Shown here one piece after another: positions 7,009 to 42,423 of a stretch of 64,000 nt of DNA. Positions within the stretch are counted from its first letter, which is position 1. Every line of letters begins with the position of its first letter. A program made the position numbers and the translations under genes. Below the pieces are notes generated by a model. The model was not told the DNA's origin. It made no database searches and was given only the letters and a program-made list of their open reading frames with translations. The stretch is taken from the NCBI GenBank assembly GCA_050298295.1, contig JBNKTW010000071.1, positions 7,092 through 71,091 of the forward strand, given 5' to 3'. This DNA comes from Rhodomicrobiaceae bacterium (GTDB lineage Bacteria; Pseudomonadota; Alphaproteobacteria; Rhizobiales; Rhodomicrobiaceae).

Positions 7009-7515
7009 ATGCCCGCGGCCACGATCTACAAGCTCCTGACGCGCGGGGAATGGGAGGCGGCGCAGGCCGCTGGCGTCTATCGTGGATCGGCGCACGATGC
7101 GCGCGACGGCTTCATCCATTTCTCCACCGCCGCGCAACTCGCGGGGACGGCGCGGAAGTATTTCGCCGGCGTCCCCGGTCTGGTCCTGCTTGCGGTGGAT
7201 GTCGAGGCCCTGAAGAAGCCCCCATCCTGTCCTTCTCCCCAAGGAGAGAAGGGACGCCCGAACTGCCCGCGGCCTGACTCCCTCTCCCATCCGCAAGCGG
7301 ATGCGGACACTTTGGAGAAGCAAGCTCACCAAGGCGAGCTTGCGCGGGAGAGGGCTGGGGTGAGGGGGGATATCCTCTGTTGGGAGCCCGCGCGCGATGG
7401 CGATCTCTTCCCCCACCTTTACGAGGATTTGCCCATTTCCGCAGTGAGAAGCATAATTGCCATACCCCTCGGTGCGGACGGCATTCCCATTCTTCCTGAC
7501 AGGCTTCAGCCATGA
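7009..7515 (+). CDS. DUF952 family protein carrying an in-frame ~52-aa repeat-derived insertion
   Basis: IYKL, DGFIHFST and WEPARDGDLFPHLY motifs; usual position upstream of pyrD; residues ~69-120 are encoded by a palindromic repeat. Confidence 0.9.
   Translation: MPAATIYKLLTRGEWEAAQAAGVYRGSAHDARDGFIHFSTAAQLAGTARKYFAGVPGLVLLAVDVEALKKPPSCPSPQGEKGRPNCPRPDSLSHPQADADTLEKQAHQGELARERAGVRGDILCWEPARDGDLFPHLYEDLPISAVRSIIAIPLGADGIPILPDRLQP
7216..7368. repeat. REP/REPIN-like palindromic element (CCCTCTCCC..GGGAGAGGG family) inside the DUF952 gene
   Basis: CCCCCATCCTGTCCTTCTCCC-CAA-GGAGAGAAGG ... CCCTCTCCC-[two hairpins]-GGGAGAGGGCTGGGGTGAGGGGG; the ends are inverted relative to each other. Confidence 0.85.
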
Positions 7516-13029: not shown

Positions 13030-13521
13030 TCAGAATATGTTCAACGCGATGCGCGCCTCGTCTGACATGCGCGACGGGTCCCAAGGCGGCATGAACACCA
13101 GCGACACCCGCGCGACGCTCACGCCCCGCACCGCGTTGACCGCGCTTTCGACCCAGGCCGGCATGTCGCCCGCCACCGGGCAGCCGGGCGCGGTGAGCGT
13201 CATCTCGATGTCGACCTCGCGGTTATCGTTGATGTCCACCCTGTAGATGAGGCCCAGCTCGTAGATATCAACGGGGATCTCCGGGTCGTAGACCGTCTTC
13301 AGCGCCCCGATGATGTCCATGGTGAGCCGCTCCAGCTCCTCCTCGGGGATCGGGGCTCCGGACTTGAAATCCTTCGCCACCTCGACCGTGTGCTGGCAAG
13401 GCTCCGGCATATGATGGTCCGGGCCGTGGTGATGCGGCTCGTGGTGCGCGGGCGGAGCTTGCGGCGCATCCCAGGGCGCGGGGTCAACCAGCGTTTTTCT
13501 TTCGTTCATCGATTCCGTCAT
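13030..13521 (-). CDS. sufT: SUF system Fe-S assembly protein (SufT/DUF59) with His-rich N-terminus
   Basis: VYDPEIPVDIYELGLIY, MTLTAPGCPVA, PPWDPSRMS; ATG overlaps the sufS stop. Confidence 0.92.
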   Translation of the reverse strand: MTESMNERKTLVDPAPWDAPQAPPAHHEPHHHGPDHHMPEPCQHTVEVAKDFKSGAPIPEEELERLTMDIIGALKTVYDPEIPVDIYELGLIYRVDINDNREVDIEMTLTAPGCPVAGDMPAWVESAVNAVRGVSVARVSLVFMPPWDPSRMSDEARIALNIF

Positions 13522-14762
13522 TTGAAGATCCGCTCCGCTTTCAGTAATGCCTCCGCCAGTGCGTCCACCTCGGCGCGCGTATTGTAGAGCCCGAACGACG
13601 CCCTGCAAGTAGCCGTTACGCCAAAGCGGGCGAGCAACGGCTCCGCGCAATGCGTGCCGGCCCTGACCGCAATGCCCGATTGATCCAGGACCGTGGCGAT
13701 ATCGTGGGGGTGCGCGCCTTCCATGGTGAAGGAGACGATCGGCCCCTTGTCCGGCGCCTGGCCTATCATTCTGAGCGAATTGATTGGCCGCAGGCGCTCC
13801 TCCGCATAACGGCGCAGATCGTTCTCATGGGCGCGGACGCGGGCCTTGCCGATGCCGTCCACATAGTCGAGCGCTGCCGTGAGCGCCGCCGCCTCGGCGA
13901 TGGGCGGGGTGCCGGCCTCGAATCGGTAGGGTGGATCGTTGTAGCTGACCGTGTCCATTGTTACGGTCTCGATCATCTCGCCGCCGCCGAGGAATGGCGG
14001 CATGGCCTGAAGATGCTCCGCCTTGCCGTAAAGCGCGCCGATGCCACTCGGGCCGTATAGCTTGTGGCCCGTGATGGCGTAGAAATCGCAATCTATGTCC
14101 TGCACATCCACATCGAGGTGAACCGCGCCCTGGCTGCCGTCCACCAGCACATAAGCGCCATGCGCGTGCGCGATCCCGCACACCTCCTTCACCGGCGCGG
14201 AGGTGCCCAGCACGTTCGACATGTGCGTGATCCCGACCATCTTGGTGCGCGGGGTAATCGCGGCCTCGAAATCCTCCAGCCGGAACTCGCCGTCATCCGT
14301 TACAGGCACCCATTTGATGACGGCGCCGCGCCGCTCGCGATGGAAGTGCCACGGGATGATGTTGGAATGGTGCTCCATAACGGAGAGCACGATCTCGTCG
14401 CCGGGGCCTATCACCATGCCGCCGAAGGACTGCGCCGCGAGGTTAATCGCCTCGGTGGCGTTCTTCGTGAAGATGATTTGCTTCGGGTCCGGCGCGTTCA
14501 GGAACTTCGCCACCCGCGTGCGCGCGCCTTCATACGCATCGGTCGCGGCGTTGGCGAGGTAGTGTAAGCCCCTGTGCACATTGGCATATTCGTGCGCGTA
14601 CGCCTTCACCAGCGCATCGAGCACGGCCTGCGGCTTCTGCGCGCTTGCCGCGTTGTCGAGATAGACCAGCGGCTTGCCGTACACCTTGAGCGACAGCGCC
14701 GGGAAGTCGCGCCGGATGGCCTCCACGTCATAGGTGGCGGGCTCTTTTTCAATTACCGTCAT
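13518..14762 (-). CDS. sufS: Cysteine desulfurase SufS
   Basis: YLDNAASAQKP, HSNIIPW, TGHKLYGP, RAGTHCA motifs. Confidence 0.96.
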   Translation of the reverse strand: MTVIEKEPATYDVEAIRRDFPALSLKVYGKPLVYLDNAASAQKPQAVLDALVKAYAHEYANVHRGLHYLANAATDAYEGARTRVAKFLNAPDPKQIIFTKNATEAINLAAQSFGGMVIGPGDEIVLSVMEHHSNIIPWHFHRERRGAVIKWVPVTDDGEFRLEDFEAAITPRTKMVGITHMSNVLGTSAPVKEVCGIAHAHGAYVLVDGSQGAVHLDVDVQDIDCDFYAITGHKLYGPSGIGALYGKAEHLQAMPPFLGGGEMIETVTMDTVSYNDPPYRFEAGTPPIAEAAALTAALDYVDGIGKARVRAHENDLRRYAEERLRPINSLRMIGQAPDKGPIVSFTMEGAHPHDIATVLDQSGIAVRAGTHCAEPLLARFGVTATCRASFGLYNTRAEVDALAEALLKAERIFK

Positions 14763-14777
14763 GGTAGCACCCCGCTC

Positions 14778-14866
14778 TCATGGCCGGGCTTGACCCGGCC
14801 ATCCAGAGCAACATGGACAACGTTTGTTTTGAGGGGCTGGATGGCCGGGTCGGGCCCGGCCATGAC
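14778..14866. repeat. REP doublet, TCATGGCCGGGCTTGACCCGGCCATCCA family
   Basis: TCATGGCCGGGCTTGACCCGGCCATCCA ... TGGATGGCCGGGTCGGGCCCGGCCATGAC between sufD and sufS. Confidence 0.88.
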
Positions 14867-14867
14867 A

Positions 14868-16187
14868 CTAGGAAAGCCACGCATCCACCTTCTCCTGCAA
14901 CGCGGCGCGCAAGCTCTCGTTGCCGATCTTGTCCAGCGCCTCGCCGACGAACGCCGCTATCAAAAGCGCCCGCGCCTCCGGCTCTGGAAGGCCGCGCGCC
15001 CGCAGATAGAACATCAGATCCCCGTCAATCTGCCCCGCCGTCGAGCCGTGGCCGCACGCCACGTCATCGGCGAAAATCTCAAGCTCGGGCTTGGAGTCGA
15101 ACTCGGCATCGTTGGAGAGCAGGAGCGCATTGGCCATCTGCTTGCCGTCGGTCTTCTGCGCCCCGCGCTGCACGATCACCTTGCCCTGGAACACGCCGCG
15201 CGCGCGCCCGTCCAGCACGGCCTTCACCAGCTCGCGGCTTTCGCAAGCCTCCGCCGCGTGATCGACCACCAGCGTGAAATCCGCGTGCGCCCGCTCGCGC
15301 AGCATCATCGCGCCGGCGTAGTGGCAGCGCGCGTGCCGGCCGTCGAAACGGATGTGCATCTGCGCCCGCGTGAGCGCGCCGTCCACCGTCACTTGCAGCG
15401 GCTCGTAATGCGTCCGCTCCTCCAGCGCCACGGAAACCGAAGCAAGCTGCTTCGCGCCGCCGGTTACGCGGACATGGCTGACGCGGGCGTTGCACCCGGC
15501 CATAAGCCGCATATACGACAGCGCCTGGGACTCGCCCAAAGCCGCGTGCGTTTCGATGAGCTGGACTTCGGCGCGGTCGCCAATCGCAACCGTGCTGAGG
15601 GTTGCGGCAAGCTTCGGCGTCCCTTCACTCACAATGAAAATCAAATGGATGGGCTTTTCGAGCCGCGTGCCGGACGCAACCGAGAGAAGCGCGCCATCGG
15701 TTGCGAAGGCGGCGGCCAGCGCCGCAATCACATCGCGCCCAGCCCCGGCTTGAGTCCCGAGCCCGGCGCAGGAGACCTCTTCGAGCGCAAGGCGGAGCGG
15801 CTCGAACGTCACCCCAGGCGCATCCTGCACGCTCGAAAGATCGGGCCGGAACAGTCCGTCCACGAACACGGCGCGATAGGCGTCCAACTGGGCGAGCGCC
15901 TTGCCAATCGCGGCCTCGACGTTCACGCCGGCCGCCACCACGGGCGTAAGCCCCGCCAGCGGATGGACTTCCGGCATTAGCGTGCGCAGGTCGGTGTATT
16001 TCCATTCCTCGACGCGGCGGTGCGGCAGGCCCTGCGAGGCGAACAGATCCAGCGCCGCCTCGCGCTTTTCGCGCACGTTTGCGTGGCGCGCGCCGGGCAG
16101 CTTGTCCGCAACGCTGGCGTAGAGGTCGAGATAGCGCTGCTCCGCCGCAGTGGGCGCGGGGCGGGCTTTGGTTGGTTGGATCGTCAT
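14868..16187 (-). CDS. sufD: Fe-S cluster assembly protein SufD
   Basis: LPHRRVEEWKYTDL, VFQGKVIV, KPELEIFADDVACGHG. Confidence 0.95.
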   Translation of the reverse strand: MTIQPTKARPAPTAAEQRYLDLYASVADKLPGARHANVREKREAALDLFASQGLPHRRVEEWKYTDLRTLMPEVHPLAGLTPVVAAGVNVEAAIGKALAQLDAYRAVFVDGLFRPDLSSVQDAPGVTFEPLRLALEEVSCAGLGTQAGAGRDVIAALAAAFATDGALLSVASGTRLEKPIHLIFIVSEGTPKLAATLSTVAIGDRAEVQLIETHAALGESQALSYMRLMAGCNARVSHVRVTGGAKQLASVSVALEERTHYEPLQVTVDGALTRAQMHIRFDGRHARCHYAGAMMLRERAHADFTLVVDHAAEACESRELVKAVLDGRARGVFQGKVIVQRGAQKTDGKQMANALLLSNDAEFDSKPELEIFADDVACGHGSTAGQIDGDLMFYLRARGLPEPEARALLIAAFVGEALDKIGNESLRAALQEKVDAWLS

Positions 16188-16196
16188 CGCCGCCCC

Positions 16197-16952
16197 TTAA
16201 GCCGCTTCCGCGCCGTAGCCTGCGTAGCCGGATTCCTCAAGCTCCACCGCCAGCTCCTTGCCGCCCGAGCGCAAAATCTGTCCGCGAGCCATCACATGCA
16301 CCTTGTCCGGCACGATGTAGTTCAGGAGCCGCTGATAATGGGTGATGACGAGGATCGAGCGCTCCGGCGACCGCAGCCGGTTCACCCCCTCCGCGGCGAT
16401 GCGGATCGCGTCGATGTCGAGGCCGGAGTCCATCTCGTCGAGGATGAGCAGGCTGGGCTTGAGCAGCGCCATCTGCAGCACCTCGTTGCGCTTTTTCTCG
16501 CCGCCCGAAAAGCCGGTGTTCAGCGGGCGCTTCAGCATATCCATCGAAATGCCGAGTTCACCGGCCGCCGCCTTCACCACGCGCATGAATTCGGGGATGG
16601 AGATTTCGCTCTCGCCGCGCGCCTTGCGATGCGCATTCATGGCGGCGCGCAGGAAGGTCAGCGAGGCAACGCCCGGAATCTCTATCGGATATTGGAAGGA
16701 CAGAAACACGCCGGCGTGTGCGCGTTCGTCGGGACTCATTTCCAGGAGGTTCTTGCCGTCCCAGGTGATCGAACCGCCCGTGACCTCGTAATCCTCCTTG
16801 CCGGAAATGACATAGGACAGCGTGGACTTGCCCGAGCCATTCGGCCCCATGATCGCGTGCACCTCGCCTCTGGGCACGGTGAGGCTGAAACCCTTCAGTA
16901 TTTCCTTGCCGTCGATTTCGGCGCGCAGGTCTTTGATTTCGAGCATTCCCAT
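16197..16952 (-). CDS. sufC: Fe-S cluster assembly ATPase SufC
   Basis: MGPNGSGKST, FQYPIEIPG, FSGGEKKRNE, LDEMDSGLD. Start at MGMLEIK (16952) or at 16946. Confidence 0.96.
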   Translation of the reverse strand: MGMLEIKDLRAEIDGKEILKGFSLTVPRGEVHAIMGPNGSGKSTLSYVISGKEDYEVTGGSITWDGKNLLEMSPDERAHAGVFLSFQYPIEIPGVASLTFLRAAMNAHRKARGESEISIPEFMRVVKAAAGELGISMDMLKRPLNTGFSGGEKKRNEVLQMALLKPSLLILDEMDSGLDIDAIRIAAEGVNRLRSPERSILVITHYQRLLNYIVPDKVHVMARGQILRSGGKELAVELEESGYAGYGAEAA

Positions 16953-16954
16953 TC

Positions 16955-17215
16955 CTATCTTTTTTCTTCGTCCGCGCCCCAGCGCCACCGCCAGGCCCCG
17001 TCCGTTTTCTTCCAGGATATCCAAATAAATAGCACCGTGGCGGCGGCCGTGGCCGTGAGCGCGATGAGGCGCGCCTGCCCGCCGCCGAAGCCGGCTTCGA
17101 GCATCTTCATAATCCCTATGAGCGCGGCCACGAAGGCAACGGTCAGCAGCCATCCCTGCCATGTCGCAGGCGTGGCGCCGTAACCATAGCGTTTTGGGCG
17201 GAACCAGTAGCTCAC
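16955..17215 (-). CDS. Small membrane protein (WFRPKRYGYGATPxxWxGW type), unknown function
   Basis: GTG start overlapping the upstream stop; two hydrophobic helices; Trp-rich ends. Confidence 0.7.
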   Translation of the reverse strand: MSYWFRPKRYGYGATPATWQGWLLTVAFVAALIGIMKMLEAGFGGGQARLIALTATAAATVLFIWISWKKTDGAWRWRWGADEEKR

Positions 17216-17433
17216 AATGGCTTCCTCCAGCGCCGTATCGGGCCAACGCCCCAGAAAAAGGCCCGGATGAACAGCGCAACGGTGACGGCCAGGGTTGCGA
17301 ACCGGGTCAACGGCCAGCCGCTGAACAGGCCGTGGGCCAGCGCGAAGGCCAGCACCGCGAACAGCGCCGCCGCGATCCAGGCTTTCCAGTCCCATGCCGG
17401 CTCGAAATCCTTGCGCCTATATCCGTAGCTCAT
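17212..17433 (-). CDS. Small hypothetical membrane protein
   Basis: 73 aa, two hydrophobic segments, translationally coupled on both sides. Confidence 0.65.
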   Translation of the reverse strand: MSYGYRRKDFEPAWDWKAWIAAALFAVLAFALAHGLFSGWPLTRFATLAVTVALFIRAFFWGVGPIRRWRKPL

Positions 17434-17789
17434 GAGGCCCTCCGCACCAAAACGAGACCCAGGATTAGAGTAAACGGCAGAACGATGAGATGCCGGACGG
17501 CGGCGGAGTAGCCCACGGCTTTGCCCGCAATCGCGAAATCGCCGAGCGGCACGATGGAGGCCAGCAGCAGCACCACGCCCAGCGGCTTCGCGGCGCGCAT
17601 CGCCGCCAGCGCGATGACAGCGAGCCCTATGGCCAGCTCGCGCGTGCCCATCAGTGGCGTGAGCCCGATATCGGCCAGATGCGACGGGTCGATCCCGAAC
17701 GCTTGCACCGCGCCGAACGGCGAGACGATCAGCGCGGCGCCGATCAGGCTCAGAAACGCACCCAGCAATGCAGCAAGTATCAACGCCAT
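17430..17789 (-). CDS. DUF4267-like membrane protein
   Basis: Four hydrophobic helices with GxRELxxG and PxGD motifs. Confidence 0.7.
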   Translation of the reverse strand: MALILAALLGAFLSLIGAALIVSPFGAVQAFGIDPSHLADIGLTPLMGTRELAIGLAVIALAAMRAAKPLGVVLLLASIVPLGDFAIAGKAVGYSAAVRHLIVLPFTLILGLVLVRRAS

Positions 17790-18199
17790 TATTGATATTT
17801 CCCTTTCAGCATCGTCCCCTCTCCCACAGGGAGAGGGACAGGGTGAGGGGTTGCACCCTTCGTTATTCTGACAATCTCAGCCAAGACCCCTTCGATATTC
17901 TCCAGCACTTCGTTATTCCAGAACCGCAGAACCTGAATTCCGGCCCCCTGCAGGACTGCGGTCCTATTCATATCCCATTCCGTCTGGCTGGCGTGCTGGC
18001 CGCCGTCGAGTTCCACAACCAGGTTCGCGGCTTCGCAGAAGAAATCCGCGTAGAAGCCAAAGAGCGGAACCTGGCGGCGGAACTTCAGGCCTTCGAGCTG
18101 GCGATTTCGCAGGTGCCGCCAGAGCTTACGCTCAGCGTCAGTGCCCGCGCCGCGTAACTCGCGGGCTCCGCCTGTTTTACGCTTTGCCAGACTCTCCAA
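17789..18199 (-). CDS. DUF559 / Vsr-like endonuclease domain protein
   Basis: ARELR, TDAERKLW, KFRRQ, YADF, VVELDGGQH, VLRFWNNEV motifs. Confidence 0.92.
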   Translation of the reverse strand: MESLAKRKTGGARELRGAGTDAERKLWRHLRNRQLEGLKFRRQVPLFGFYADFFCEAANLVVELDGGQHASQTEWDMNRTAVLQGAGIQVLRFWNNEVLENIEGVLAEIVRITKGATPHPVPLPVGEGTMLKGKYQ

Positions 18200-18241
18200 C
18201 CCTGTAACCCCTCACCCTGTCCCTCTCCCACTGGGAGAGGG
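17817..18241. mobile_element. Putative DUF559 element bounded by 36-bp hairpin inverted repeats
   Basis: Left 17817-17852 (reverse complement) and right 18206-18241 both read AACCCCTCACCCTGTCCCTCTCCC-NNN-GGGAGAGGG, 34/36 identical. Mobility is inferred. Confidence 0.65.
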
Positions 18242-18251
18242 CACGCTGTTG

Positions 18252-19739
18252 CTAACCTACGCTGCCTTCGAGGCTGATGGAGATGAGTTTCTGCGTTTCG
18301 GCCAGGAACTCCATCGGGAGCTGTTGCAGCACGTCGCGGACGAAGCCGTTCACGATCAGCGTCACCGCCTCCTCTTCGGAAAGCCCGCGCTGCAGGCAAT
18401 AGAAGAGCTGGTCATCGGAGATTTTCGAGGTGGTTGCCTCGTGCTCGAACTGGGCGCTGGCGTTCTTCGCCTCGATATAGGGCACGGTGTGCGCACCGCA
18501 TTTATCGCCGATCAAGAGGCTGTCGCATTGCGTGAAGTTGCGGGCGCCGGTAGCGCGGCGGTGCGCCGAGACGAGCCCGCGATAGGTGTTGTCCGAGTGG
18601 CCGGCCGAGATGCCCTTCGAGATGATGCGGCTCGACGTGTTCTTGCCGAGATGCACCATCTTGGTGCCGCTGTCCACCTGCTGGTAGCCGTTCGACACGG
18701 CGATGGAATAGAACTCGCCCCGGCTGTTGTCGCCGCGCAGGATGCAGCTCGGATATTTCCAGGTGATGGCAGAGCCGGTCTCGACCTGCGTCCAGGAAAT
18801 CTTCGAGTTGCGGCCCCGGCAATCGCCGCGCTTGGTCACGAAATTATAAATACCGCCCTTGCCTTCCTTGTCGCCGGGATACCAGTTCTGCACGGTCGAG
18901 TATTTGATCTCGGCGTCGTCGAGCGCGATCAGCTCGACCACGGCGGCGTGAAGCTGGTTCTCGTCGCGCATCGGCGCGGTGCAGCCTTCGAGGTAGCTCA
19001 CATAAGCGCCCTTGTCCGCGATGATGAGTGTGCGCTCGAACTGGCCGGTCTGCTTCTCGTTGATGCGGAAGTAGGTGGAAAGCTCCATCGGGCAGCGCAC
19101 GCCTTCGGGCACGTAGACGAAGGAGCCGTCGGAGTAGACCGCCGAGTTGAGCGTTGCGAAATAGTTGTCGCTGGTGGGCACCACGCTGCCGAGATACTTG
19201 CGCACCAGTTCGGGATATTCGCGCACGGCCTCGGAGATCGAACAGAAAATCACGCCGGCCTTGGCCAGCTCTTCCTTGAAGGTCGTCACCACGGAAACGC
19301 TGTCGAACACCGCGTCCACCGCCACGCGCGGCCCATCCACGCGCGCGCCCTCGACGCCCGCAAGCACGGCCTGCTCCTTCAGCGGAATGCCAAGCTTCTC
19401 ATAGGTGCGCAGAAGCTCGGGATCGACCTCGTCCAGGCTCTTGGGCGCGGCCGCCGTTTTCGGCGCGGCGTAATAATACAGGTCTTCGTAGTCGATCTTC
19501 GGATAGTGCACGCGCGCCCATTTGGGCTCTTCCATCGTGCGCCAGCGCTGGTACGCCTCAAGCCGCCATTCGAGCAGCCATTCGGGCTCGCCCTTCTTGG
19601 CGGAGATGAAGCGGACGATGTCCTCGCTGAGGCCCTTCGGCGCTTTGTCGCTTTCGATATCGGTCGTGAAGCCGTATTTGTACTTGTCGACGTCAATCTC
19701 GTGGACGCGATGGACTGTCTCCGTTACTGGCGTAGCCAT
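18252..19739 (-). CDS. sufB: Fe-S cluster assembly protein SufB
   Basis: [38 protein letters not shown]. Confidence 0.97.
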
Positions 19740-41302: not shown

Positions 41303-41404
41303 CCCCCGTCACCCTCTCCCTGTCCCTTACCCACGCAAGCCCGCCAAGGCGAGCTTGCCACTCAGAAGCGTCCATATCCGCAAGCGGATATGGATGGGAG
41401 AGGG
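41303..41404. repeat. REP-like element of the CCCTCTCCC..GGGAGAGGG family with two internal hairpins
   Basis: CCCTCTCCCTGTCCCTTACCC-acg-CAAGCCCGCCAAGGCGAGCTTG-N13-TCCATATCCGCAAGCGGATATGGA-TGGGAGAGGG; matches the right half of the DUF952 insert. Confidence 0.8.
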
Positions 41405-41409
41405 CTCCA

Positions 41410-42423
41410 TCAGGCGGCGCCCGCGCGCAACAGATCGTGGACGTGAATAATGCCCACCGGCGTGCCGCCGCCGTCCACCACGAACAGCGCGGTGATCTGC
41501 GAGGAATTGATGATCTGCAGCGCGGCGCTCGCAAGCGTGCCCGCCGTCACTGTCTTGGGCGAGCGGGTCATGATCTCGCCCGCCGTCTTGCCGAGCAGGT
41601 CCGGCCCCATGTTCCGGCGCAGGTCGCCATCCGTCAGGATGCCGATGAGCCTGCCGCCGCCGTCAACAATGCCGAGGCAGCCGAACGCTTTTTCGGTCAT
41701 CACCACAAGCGCCGTGCTCATCGGTTCGCCGGTTCCCACCACCGGCAGCCGCTCGCCCGTGTGCATGAGGTCGCCGATGTGTTTCAAATTCGCGCCGAGC
41801 TGGCCGCCTGGGTGGAAAACCTTGAAATCGAGCGCGGTGAAGCCGCGGCCTTCCAAGAGCGCGATGGCGAGGCAATCGCCGAGGGCGAGCTGCACCAGCG
41901 CCGATGTCGTGGGCGCAAGCCCGTGCGGGCACGCCTCTTTCACCTGCGGCAGGGCAAGCACGATGTCCGCGGCCCGGCCAAGCGTGCTGTCGCGCCGCGA
42001 GGTCATCGCCACGAGCGGCACCTTGAAGCGCCGCGAATAGGTGATGAGATTGGCAAGCTCGGCCGTTTCGCCCGACCAGGAGAGCGCCAGCACGGCATCG
42101 TTCGCCGTGATCATGCCGAGGTCGCCATGGCTTGCCTCGGCGGGATGAACGAACTGCGCCGGCGAGCCCGTGGACGAAAGCGTCGCGGCGATTTTCTGCC
42201 CGACATGGCCGCTCTTGCCCATGCCGGTGACGATCACCCGGCCTTTGCAGGCGAGCATCAGCTCCACCGCGGCTTCAAAGTCCTTGGCGAGCCCGTTGCC
42301 TAAGGTACCCCCCAGCGCGTTCAGCCCATCAATCGCGCAGGCGATGCTGCGCTCGGCCACGGGCGCGGCCTCAAACCCGGTTGCTGGCTTGCTTCCGGCG
42401 GCCAGCGCGAGAGGCTTTCCCAT
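41410..42423 (-). CDS. kdsD: Arabinose-5-phosphate isomerase (KpsF/GutQ)
   Basis: TGMGKSGHVG, HPAEASHGDLG, APTTS, FHPGG, two CBS domains. Confidence 0.94.
   Translation of the reverse strand: MGKPLALAAGSKPATGFEAAPVAERSIACAIDGLNALGGTLGNGLAKDFEAAVELMLACKGRVIVTGMGKSGHVGQKIAATLSSTGSPAQFVHPAEASHGDLGMITANDAVLALSWSGETAELANLITYSRRFKVPLVAMTSRRDSTLGRAADIVLALPQVKEACPHGLAPTTSALVQLALGDCLAIALLEGRGFTALDFKVFHPGGQLGANLKHIGDLMHTGERLPVVGTGEPMSTALVVMTEKAFGCLGIVDGGGRLIGILTDGDLRRNMGPDLLGKTAGEIMTRSPKTVTAGTLASAALQIINSSQITALFVVDGGGTPVGIIHVHDLLRAGAA

Follow-up and report, generated by a model that had tools for sequence, protein, structure and literature searches.

Hundreds of genomes contain repeats of the BoxC/PIT/TM family, which were already known in the 1990s and to which no protein, origin or mechanism of spread has been assigned. 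The very large protein family DUF559, to which YcjD of Escherichia coli and a member with a structure from 2009 belong, likewise lacks an assigned function. The two meet in a stretch of 64,000 nucleotides from a Rhodomicrobiaceae bacterium (contig JBNKTW010000071.1), here called the window, whose first letter is position 1 of the coordinates given below. Its suf operon hosts a compact, conserved cassette of about 435 bp, in which a DUF559 nuclease gene lies between two inverted BoxC/PIT/TM repeats. What appears to be new is this link between gene and repeat, which makes the DUF559 nuclease the first concrete candidate for a protein that maintains or spreads the repeats. If the two belong together, two puzzles become one question that is directly testable in E. 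coli K-12.

The repeat has been described as an intrastrand-triplex motif (TM_ECO) with the consensus CCCTCNCCC-N3-6-GGGNGAGGG-N3-GGGNGAGGG, of which E. coli K-12 has 23 copies and which occurs in over 260 genomes (Holder et al., 2015; PMC4666352). As single-stranded DNA, the E. coli motif forms a purine-motif triplex in vitro, as determined by circular dichroism and nuclear magnetic resonance, and the motif has been linked to local genomic instability (Holder et al., 2015). Variable loops and inverted doublets, the latter at five K-12 loci, were already part of that description. The repeats were called always intergenic, and transposase or integrase remnants were "never found" nearby, nor was any associated mobility or other gene (Holder et al., 2015).

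Judged by its sequence, the repeat of the suf cassette, to which an earlier note on this DNA had drawn attention, is this published motif and not a new family. The upstream copy (18206–18241, minus strand) lies between the sufB stop codon, 10 nt away, and the TTG start of the intact, 136-residue DUF559 open reading frame (ORF; 17789–18199, minus strand). The downstream copy (17817–17852, plus strand) overlaps the last DUF559 codons and encodes the tail TPHPVPLPVGEG. Each repeat is composed of a C-arm, a loop, a G-arm, an ACA loop and a G-rich third strand, so that the downstream copy reads CCCTCTCCC-ACA-GGGAGAGGG-ACA-GGGTGAGGGG-TT and the reverse complement of the upstream copy reads CCCTCTCCC-AGT-GGGAGAGGG-ACA-GGGTGAGGGG-TT. 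In inverted orientation they are identical at 34 of 36 positions, both mismatches falling within the 3-nt hairpin loop. Direct reading of the sequence thus bears out what the earlier note had said about the identity of the two copies, their loop differences and their placement; its description of the repeat as a hairpin is right for the two 9-bp hairpins and overlooked the third strand.

Both copies match the published consensus exactly, with a C-arm, a G-arm and a mirror third strand that obeys the purine-motif rules, and they are almost identical to K-12 copies such as CCCTCTCCCTGTGGGAGAGGGCCGGGGTGAGGGC. A repeat search of the window confirmed the two 9-bp hairpins and extended the inverted repeat to 68-nt arms with 79% complementarity, the right-hand arm at 17807–17874 and the left-hand arm at 18184–18251; the identity that the two copies share outward and inward beyond the generic motif is likewise seen at other DUF559 loci. 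The hairpin pattern occurs exactly twice in the 64 kb, compared to 0.01 expected from shuffles. A rule-based triplex-motif detector reported three motifs in the window, including both cassette copies, and none in five shuffled windows. No Rfam family matched the repeats, or the long-loop variants described further below, at the gathering threshold, nor meaningfully in E-value mode. A G-quadruplex reading, in which the G-arm and the third strand provide four G-tracts, was set aside, the published in vitro structure being a triplex. Consensus fit, inverted doublets and variable loops are therefore shared with the published account. In contrast to it, the strict intergenic rule stated for E. coli K-12 does not hold, as the downstream copy overlaps the 3′ end of the DUF559 ORF and a further copy is embedded in a DUF952 ORF; and a nuclease gene is enclosed by the pair.

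This last arrangement is general among DUF559 loci. A set of 80 loci was taken from reference genomes of Alpha-, Beta-, Gamma- and Deltaproteobacteria, Deinococcus, Nitrospirota, Terriglobia and Binatia, and the detector was run on 83 DUF559 loci with the expected orientation required. The motif was detected on both sides of the gene at 54 loci, only upstream at 9, only downstream at 13 and on neither side at 7, so that 76 of the 83 carry it on at least one side, against a background in the flanks of 0.11 motifs per kb. The association of DUF559 homologs with the repeats, on which the earlier note had staked its proposal, is thereby supported. An ungapped scan for inverted matches between the 200 nt upstream and the gene's 3′ end gave values of 20–47 at most loci, compared to at most 9–14 in shuffled controls. 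In most homologs the downstream motif begins 0–8 nt past the domain core, and the upstream motif ends approximately 30–60 nt before conserved residue 12.

The sequence of the repeat varies by lineage, being CCCCCTCCC...GGGAGGGGG...GGGGGGTGGG in sphingomonads and GCCCTCCCC...GGGGAGGG...GGGTGGGG in Lysobacter. Other copies within the same locus resemble the gene-flanking ones more closely (0.82) than do copies from other genomes (0.68). The identity of the DUF559 proteins themselves is flat across phyla, at 48–59%. Among the papers found that mention DUF559, none links it to BoxC/PIT/TM repeats, and the survey of Holder et al. (2015) does not mention DUF559; the partnership thus appears to be previously unreported in the searchable literature.

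The window ORF matches Pfam DUF559 (PF04480) with E=8e-39 and 132 bits, the cutoff being 20.6, and belongs to a family in which at least nearly 8,000 candidates, out of the 8,000 that were scored in a single search, were significant. In the AlphaFold (AF2) model, whose mean predicted local distance difference test score (pLDDT) is 77, a folded core spans approximately residues 8–115 (17855–18178) and the tail, residues 117–136, is predicted to be disordered. The predicted fold is restriction-endonuclease-like, with a conserved acidic/His motif as in 3HRL, and the residues D52, E63, D65 and H69, putatively of catalytic type, are invariant in 30 aligned sequences (alignment A1). The structural-genomics entry 3HRL, NGO0050 of Neisseria gonorrhoeae, is the only solved homolog by sequence (profile match E=1e-38) and the best match in Foldseek, with a template modelling (TM) score of 0.90 and E=5e-9. 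Both NGO0050 and E. coli YcjD (b1289) belong to the same Pfam family as the window protein and are uncharacterised; the window protein stays below the NCBIfam cutoff for YcjD equivalogs (98 vs 218 bits). The second-best match in the PDB is the catalytic domain of the homing endonuclease I-Bth0305I (3R3P; TM 0.79, normalised to the target; E=9e-5), which provides a precedent for this fold in a nuclease of a mobile element. The gene of I-Bth0305I belongs to a group I intron and the enzyme possesses further DNA-binding parts, whereas the window gene, whose product has 20% sequence identity to it, is free-standing between repeats. By family and predicted fold, the window protein would be a YcjD-like nuclease of the Vsr clade of the PD-(D/E)XK enzymes. 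Among the suf-locus relatives described below, the ratio of nonsynonymous to synonymous divergence in its core is 0.07–0.12, and the nuclease is thus under strong purifying selection.

Membership in the Vsr clade raises the question of whether the repeats have anything to do with the enzyme. It could be an ordinary Vsr-type mismatch-repair nuclease located in a repeat-rich hotspot, into whose neighbourhood repeats insert, or hitch-hike, for unrelated reasons. Caulobacter VsrA, which has a DUF559 domain, acts like a Vsr nuclease and has a link to cytosine methylation, and the sufB–sufC and sufD–sufS spacers are clearly hotspots for several repeat families. However, the similarity of the window protein to E. 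coli Vsr (1VSR) is weak (TM 0.42; E=0.073), it has no match to Pfam Vsr (PF03852), and no cytosine methyltransferase adjoins the gene, whose neighbours are sufB and a DUF4267 gene. Moreover, the repeats keep their position and orientation relative to the gene to the nearest few nucleotides, in different phyla and in genomic contexts that are unrelated, which a hotspot coincidence cannot explain. We consider this explanation very unlikely. PADLOC returned no defence-system match save a marginal DpdF fragment, and Pfam no transposase domain.

The C-terminal tail of the protein is informative about what is conserved. The Pro/Gly-rich sequence PHPxPLPxGE(G/R) is almost invariant in homologs from unrelated bacteria, which could be taken for a functional peptide. 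This was rejected, because the G-arm is translated as GEG at 26 loci, as GER or RER at 12 and as GRG or GGG at 11, that is, in all three reading frames, and because the tail is disordered in the model. The constraint acts on the nucleic acid, DNA or RNA, and the conserved tail is translated repeat DNA. For annotation, this means that thousands of "endonuclease domain-containing proteins" owe their odd "PHPxPLPxGEG / PSPxxGRG" tails to translated repeats as well.

A close comparison is with REP/REPIN sequences and their RAYT transposases (Nunvar, 2010; Bertels & Rainey, 2011; Ton-Hoang, 2012). As in that system, the cassette consists of a low-copy, vertically inherited nuclease gene flanked by inverted palindromic repeats, and further copies are scattered through the genome, singly or as inverted doublets; in E. 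coli, their number goes with the presence of the gene at the level of clades. Since the data fit this pattern, we read the DUF559 protein as the cognate nuclease of the BoxC/PIT/TM repeat family, in a REPIN/RAYT-like partnership with a different class of nuclease, and give this reading an even chance. There are clear differences. The enzyme of the cassette is a Vsr-clade PD-(D/E)XK hydrolase of about 115 residues and not an HUH Y1 transposase, the conserved GTAG/CGTC tag is absent, the repeat has a third, triplex-forming strand, and one of the two repeats lies within the ORF. We know of no transposition chemistry for the PD-(D/E)XK Vsr-clade fold.

In mechanistic terms, the DUF559 nuclease would recognise the repeat or its non-B structure, be it the hairpin, the triplex or a cruciform of the inverted pair, and would cut there in a structure-specific way, so maintaining the repeats. 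Cutting would occasionally copy repeats elsewhere in the genome via host repair, recombination or template switching, routes that are invoked because a PD-(D/E)XK hydrolase is not an HUH transposase with strand transfer. What we infer, then, is binding or cutting of the repeat by the protein, a spread of the repeat that the protein drives, and mobility that depends on the nuclease. Of the REPIN/RAYT-like system put forward in the earlier note, the association and the RAYT-like logic generalise beyond the window, and the nuclease-driven spread keeps its conditional form. A wider proposal can only be made tentatively: YcjD-type DUF559 proteins may be the missing partner of the BoxC/PIT/TM repeats in a second, mechanistically distinct REPIN/RAYT-like symbiosis across phyla, recognising non-B DNA and seeding copies via host repair. 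If true, the REPIN/RAYT concept would gain a second independent example, one with another enzyme fold and with non-B DNA as its substrate, and the genomic instability reported around the repeats would also be explained.

The history of the cassette was followed in relatives, whose contigs were found via homologous proteins, by scanning genomes and by scanning metagenomes for the protein of the DUF4267 neighbour; six of them (L001, L002, L003, L085, L086 and L087) form the suf-locus set together with the window. The cassette is at the same suf position in L085 (SufB identity 97%, DUF559 identity 90%), L003 (95% and 72%), L001 (95% and 66%) and L002 (92% and 78%). In L087 (SufB 94%), the space between the same two repeats is taken up by the first ~8 codons of DUF559 and, after them, the gene of a GIY-YIG nuclease (Pfam E=3e-14), which carries flanking GGCCGGGTCAAGCCCGGCC hairpins of its own. 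In L086 (SufB 90%), DUF559 is frameshifted, and behind it come hairpins in decay and a long-loop repeat like that at 7280–7368 of the window. The scan guided by DUF4267 gave three metagenome loci, all with the repeat pair, of which one is an intact cassette, one a pseudogene and one a GIY-YIG replacement. The cassette is thus an old, vertically inherited resident and not a recent insertion, and the repeat pair outlives the nuclease. The earlier note had looked to this junction in relatives for an empty site and had held that vertical conservation with no empty alleles would speak against its proposal. The locus is indeed vertically conserved in the six relatives, and no empty allele was found among them; the RAYT analogy is not refuted by this, because RAYTs are also vertically inherited.

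Across the seven suf-locus genomes, whose flanking genes differ by a synonymous divergence (dS) of 0.3–1.6, the flanking repeats are virtually unchanged in their stems, in loop 2 (ACA) and in the third strand, and loop 1 takes nine different sequences. The suggestion in the earlier note that loop mismatches could be a substrate of the nuclease finds no support, because loop 1 simply evolves freely. Over 17855–18166, the dS between relatives is 1.5–2.7 times as high in DUF559 as in the genes next to it (DUF4267, sufB and sufC), and the GC content of DUF559 at third codon positions is 0.72, compared to 0.80–0.85 for its neighbours. Repeat-associated mutagenesis, weak codon selection or occasional allele replacement could each account for this.

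Allele replacement would also be expected of a selfish, homing-type cassette, in which the nuclease cuts gene-less doublets as "empty sites" and repair copies the gene in, the repeats being target and homology arms rather than the cargo that is spread. The L087 slot, where the same two repeats hold a GIY-YIG nuclease, and the resemblance of the fold to I-Bth0305I, the closest after 3HRL, point in the same direction, and the flat identity across phyla suggests horizontal transfer. On the other hand, the gene is held at one locus under strong purifying selection in five relatives, where fixed homing genes normally decay, and arms of ~35–50 bp are short.

Gene-less doublets, the substrate that homing would require, do exist. 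In the source metagenome, the repeat bins of the window have 50–80 times the word depth of unique DNA and contigs break at repeats, and in three contigs of genome-like depth the two repeats are joined directly, for which gene-less inverted doublets elsewhere in the genome are the simplest reading. At the suf locus itself, the depth of DUF559 (36) equals that of the flank (34), and there is therefore no sign of a gene-less subpopulation. Gene-less doublets share the H-E...E'-H geometry of the cassette, and five are present in E. coli K-12. The one in the K-12 hrpB–mrcB spacer (repeat, 16 nt, inverted repeat) has the geometry of the cassette minus the gene; some E. coli lineages have this doublet of ~100 bp and others cleanly lack it, ST131, a B2 strain, being one of the latter. 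No doublet has so far been found that is allelic to a cassette: among the six suf relatives there is no empty allele, and one has GIY-YIG in the slot. The gene is also usually single-copy despite many doublets, with a median of one ycjD in E. coli against five doublets in K-12, and it is rare on plasmids. Homing is, in our view, unlikely. A plasmid-borne or insertion-sequence-like lifestyle was rejected, since among 72,556 plasmid records just 45 contain a DUF559 homolog, and most of these are chromids or chromosomes that were mislabelled. Unlike an insertion sequence or a MITE (miniature inverted-repeat transposable element), the cassette has neither a transposase domain nor flanking direct repeats, and no direct repeats were found to flank the E. 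coli doublet either.

In E. coli, the family member ycjD (b1289) is located between sapF and fabI, with TM_ECO #9 approximately 170 nt downstream. In the 1990s, BoxC was first noticed next to envM (fabI), the neighbour of ycjD. The tail of ycjD (RRSPSP*) is a decayed repeat, as in the window copy a repeat forms the tail; the upstream repeat has been lost in ycjD, while the window copy keeps both repeats intact. In NC_000913.3 (1351160–1351830), a partial duplication of the last ~50 nt of ycjD follows the gene and is itself followed by TM_ECO #9. The gene is present in 3,378 of 5,426 complete E. coli genomes, with a median of one copy, and is absent from 38%. The sapF–fabI spacer carries ycjD in phylogroups A, B1 and C as well as in ST69 and ST182, and eefRABCD in other groups (2026 paper); for O157:H7, the presence of eefRABCD in place of ycjD was confirmed. 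The ycjD-less allele was examined as a possible empty site and rejected: because it is an eefRABCD island of ~7 kb and not a precise excision, it cannot define the ends of an element.

The number of repeats in E. coli tracks the presence of ycjD. A chimeric query of ycjD and repeat was searched against the 5,426 E. coli genomes and an evenly spread sample of chromosomes was compared, in which 35 chromosomes with ycjD had 11–28 places (median 17, including the ycjD place itself) and 21 without it had 1–23 (median 3). Published counts can be set beside this once the strains are sorted by phylogroup. There are 1–2 repeats per strain in B2, 6–7 in F, 10–11 in E, 13 in D, 13–24 in A and 23–30 in B1/C (Holder et al., 2015, Table S7). 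The correlation is real, at the level of clades, and phylogenetically confounded.

Several observations weigh against DUF559 as the cognate nuclease, and this last one is among them, the E. coli correlation being clade-level only and confounded by phylogeny. Lineages without ycjD keep repeats, with ~11–12 in O157:H7 and 10–15 in phylogroups E and D. The repeat pair persists in L087, where the gene is replaced by GIY-YIG, and in L086, around a DUF559 pseudogene, so that, over short spans of time, the repeats can do without a DUF559 encoded in cis. No repeat was detected at seven of the 83 DUF559 loci, and no empty sufB–DUF4267 junction was found among the six suf-locus relatives or the metagenome loci recovered with DUF4267. 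Neither a target-site duplication nor a conserved cleavage tag flanks the repeats: over 228 repeats, no conserved tetranucleotide or tag of the GTAG/CGTC kind was found outside them, a GCGT being kept only in the suf clade. To our knowledge, a PD-(D/E)XK hydrolase has no means of moving DNA by itself. Finally, a stable triplex was not found in vivo (Holder et al., 2015).

The repeats may also act where they are. No promoter-like site of the cassette's own was found, and for this reason it is probably co-transcribed with sufB. The G-rich third strand of the upstream repeat (18208–18217) is followed by an 8-nt spacer and the TTG start codon (18197–18199, minus strand), and suf-locus orthologs that start with GTG, ATG or TTG keep the same spacing. 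Across homologs, the distance from third strand to start codon has a mode of 8–10 nt and a median of 10 (n=49). The third strand is thus placed like a Shine-Dalgarno sequence and likely serves as the ribosome-binding site. In the predicted minimum-free-energy RNA structure (-236.9 kcal/mol, z=-9.6), the two repeats pair as a long-range stem that encloses the DUF559 ORF. Such a panhandle in the suf mRNA would also enclose the ribosome-binding site; as a plausible secondary function, it would keep the nuclease low by throttling translation and could make a processing site.

Taken further, these features could be the whole explanation. The repeats would then act only in cis, the upstream one as a ribosome-binding site that the mRNA panhandle hides, limiting a possibly toxic nuclease and making an RNase III or mRNA-stability site between sufB and sufC, and the dispersed copies would be unrelated to the protein. 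The filling of other intercistronic spacers of the suf operon by palindromic repeats agrees with this. It leaves unexplained, however, why the repeat is dispersed at dozens of unrelated loci, why its number in E. coli tracks ycjD and why the third strand should be conserved in the downstream copy as well, which needs no ribosome-binding site. Earlier work found no promoter or terminator activity of PIT elements (cited by Holder et al., 2015). A purely cis-acting role is hence judged to be distinctly unlikely.

An inverted repeat on either side of a gene also calls to mind programmed inversion, which in this case would switch the nuclease on and off. DUF559 domain-containing proteins are enriched 14-fold among computationally predicted targets of programmed inversion, an observation that its authors took no further (Milman et al., 2023). 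Such an enrichment is expected from the inverted repeat alone, and is presumably due to the repeats that flank DUF559 genes. Unlike a known inversion switch, the cassette has no adjacent invertase, no recombinase being present in its flanks, and the gene has a single orientation in all seven suf-locus genomes and in the contigs of the source run. No strand-switch joints were found in the source run, for which the data are at contig level only. Inversion is accordingly regarded as highly improbable.

The remaining copies in the window bring the total in its 64 kb to three canonical and two long-loop motifs. The earlier note had listed 7216–7368 and 41303–41404 as nuclease-free relatives of the cassette repeats; they are real, and they are composite. 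A solo canonical motif with the degenerate stems CCTTCTCTCC/GGAGAAGG is located at 7219–7252 (minus strand), inside the DUF952 ORF, and a long-loop variant at 7280–7368 (plus strand) consists of CCCTCTCCC, an insert of 57 nt that holds two hairpins, GGGAGAGGG, CTG and GGGTGAGGGG. The second long-loop variant, at 41303–41404 (minus strand), lies directly downstream of a gene ending at 41410. Both have canonical stems and third strand, with a two-hairpin insert of 57–62 nt in loop 1. Between long-loop copies, the stems of the first hairpin differ around a constant GCWWGC centre, that is, by compensatory changes, and the second hairpin is GCAAGCTCGCCWWGGCGAGCTTGC. The composite recurs in the relative L086 (2488–2575) and may be the form that proliferates in the window's lineage. 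The segment 7216–7368 (153 nt, 51 codons), comprising the canonical and the long-loop motif, is inserted in frame in the DUF952 gene (ORF 7009–7515, plus strand), and Pfam matches the DUF952 protein in two stretches, one on each side of it; this recalls the in-frame palindromic elements of Rickettsia.

The suf operon of the window is encoded on the minus strand, with sufS at 13518–14762, sufD at 14868–16187, sufC at approximately 16197–16950 and sufB, the upstream neighbour of the cassette, at 18252–19739, its stop codon at 18252. On the other side of the cassette, the gene of a DUF4267 membrane protein (17430–17789, minus strand) has an ATG that overlaps the DUF559 stop codon (TAATG). Between it and sufC are two overlapping small hydrophobic ORFs of 73 and 146 residues (16955–17433) without a Pfam match, of which only the shorter is kept in L003 and L085; several small genes have accumulated in the sufB–sufC gap of this lineage.

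The sufS–sufD spacer (14775–14868) carries a second palindromic repeat, GGCCGGGTCAAGCCCGGCC, as a gene-less inverted doublet. In L087 (2560–2935), GGCCGGGTCAAGCCCGGCC hairpins bracket the 96-residue GIY-YIG nuclease gene, nested between the triplex repeats in the slot usually held by DUF559, which suggests a parallel type of cassette, a small nuclease bracketed by its own palindromes. In the sufD–sufS spacer of L001 (8201–8297) and L002 (7171–7268), a doublet of the triplex motif, in the opposite, tail-to-tail arrangement, stands in place of the GGCCGGG hairpin doublet of the window. The intercistronic spacers of the suf operon thus exchange repeat families between related genomes.

At two of the other loci, the repeat unit also forms tandem arrays behind the gene. 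In L050 (3300–3600), DUF559 is followed by three tandem units of ~96 nt that encode TPTPLPEGEGLKQSTVENVSEANCNA..., and in L017 (2800–3550), from a Rickettsiales genome with two DUF559 loci (L012 and L017), many alternating repeat units follow the gene. In L023 (Rhodanobacteraceae, Gammaproteobacteria) and L056 (Rhodospirillales, Alphaproteobacteria), the cassette lies directly upstream of a hemW-like radical-SAM gene and the DUF559 frame continues into that gene, which may be a recurrent insertion context or a coincidence.

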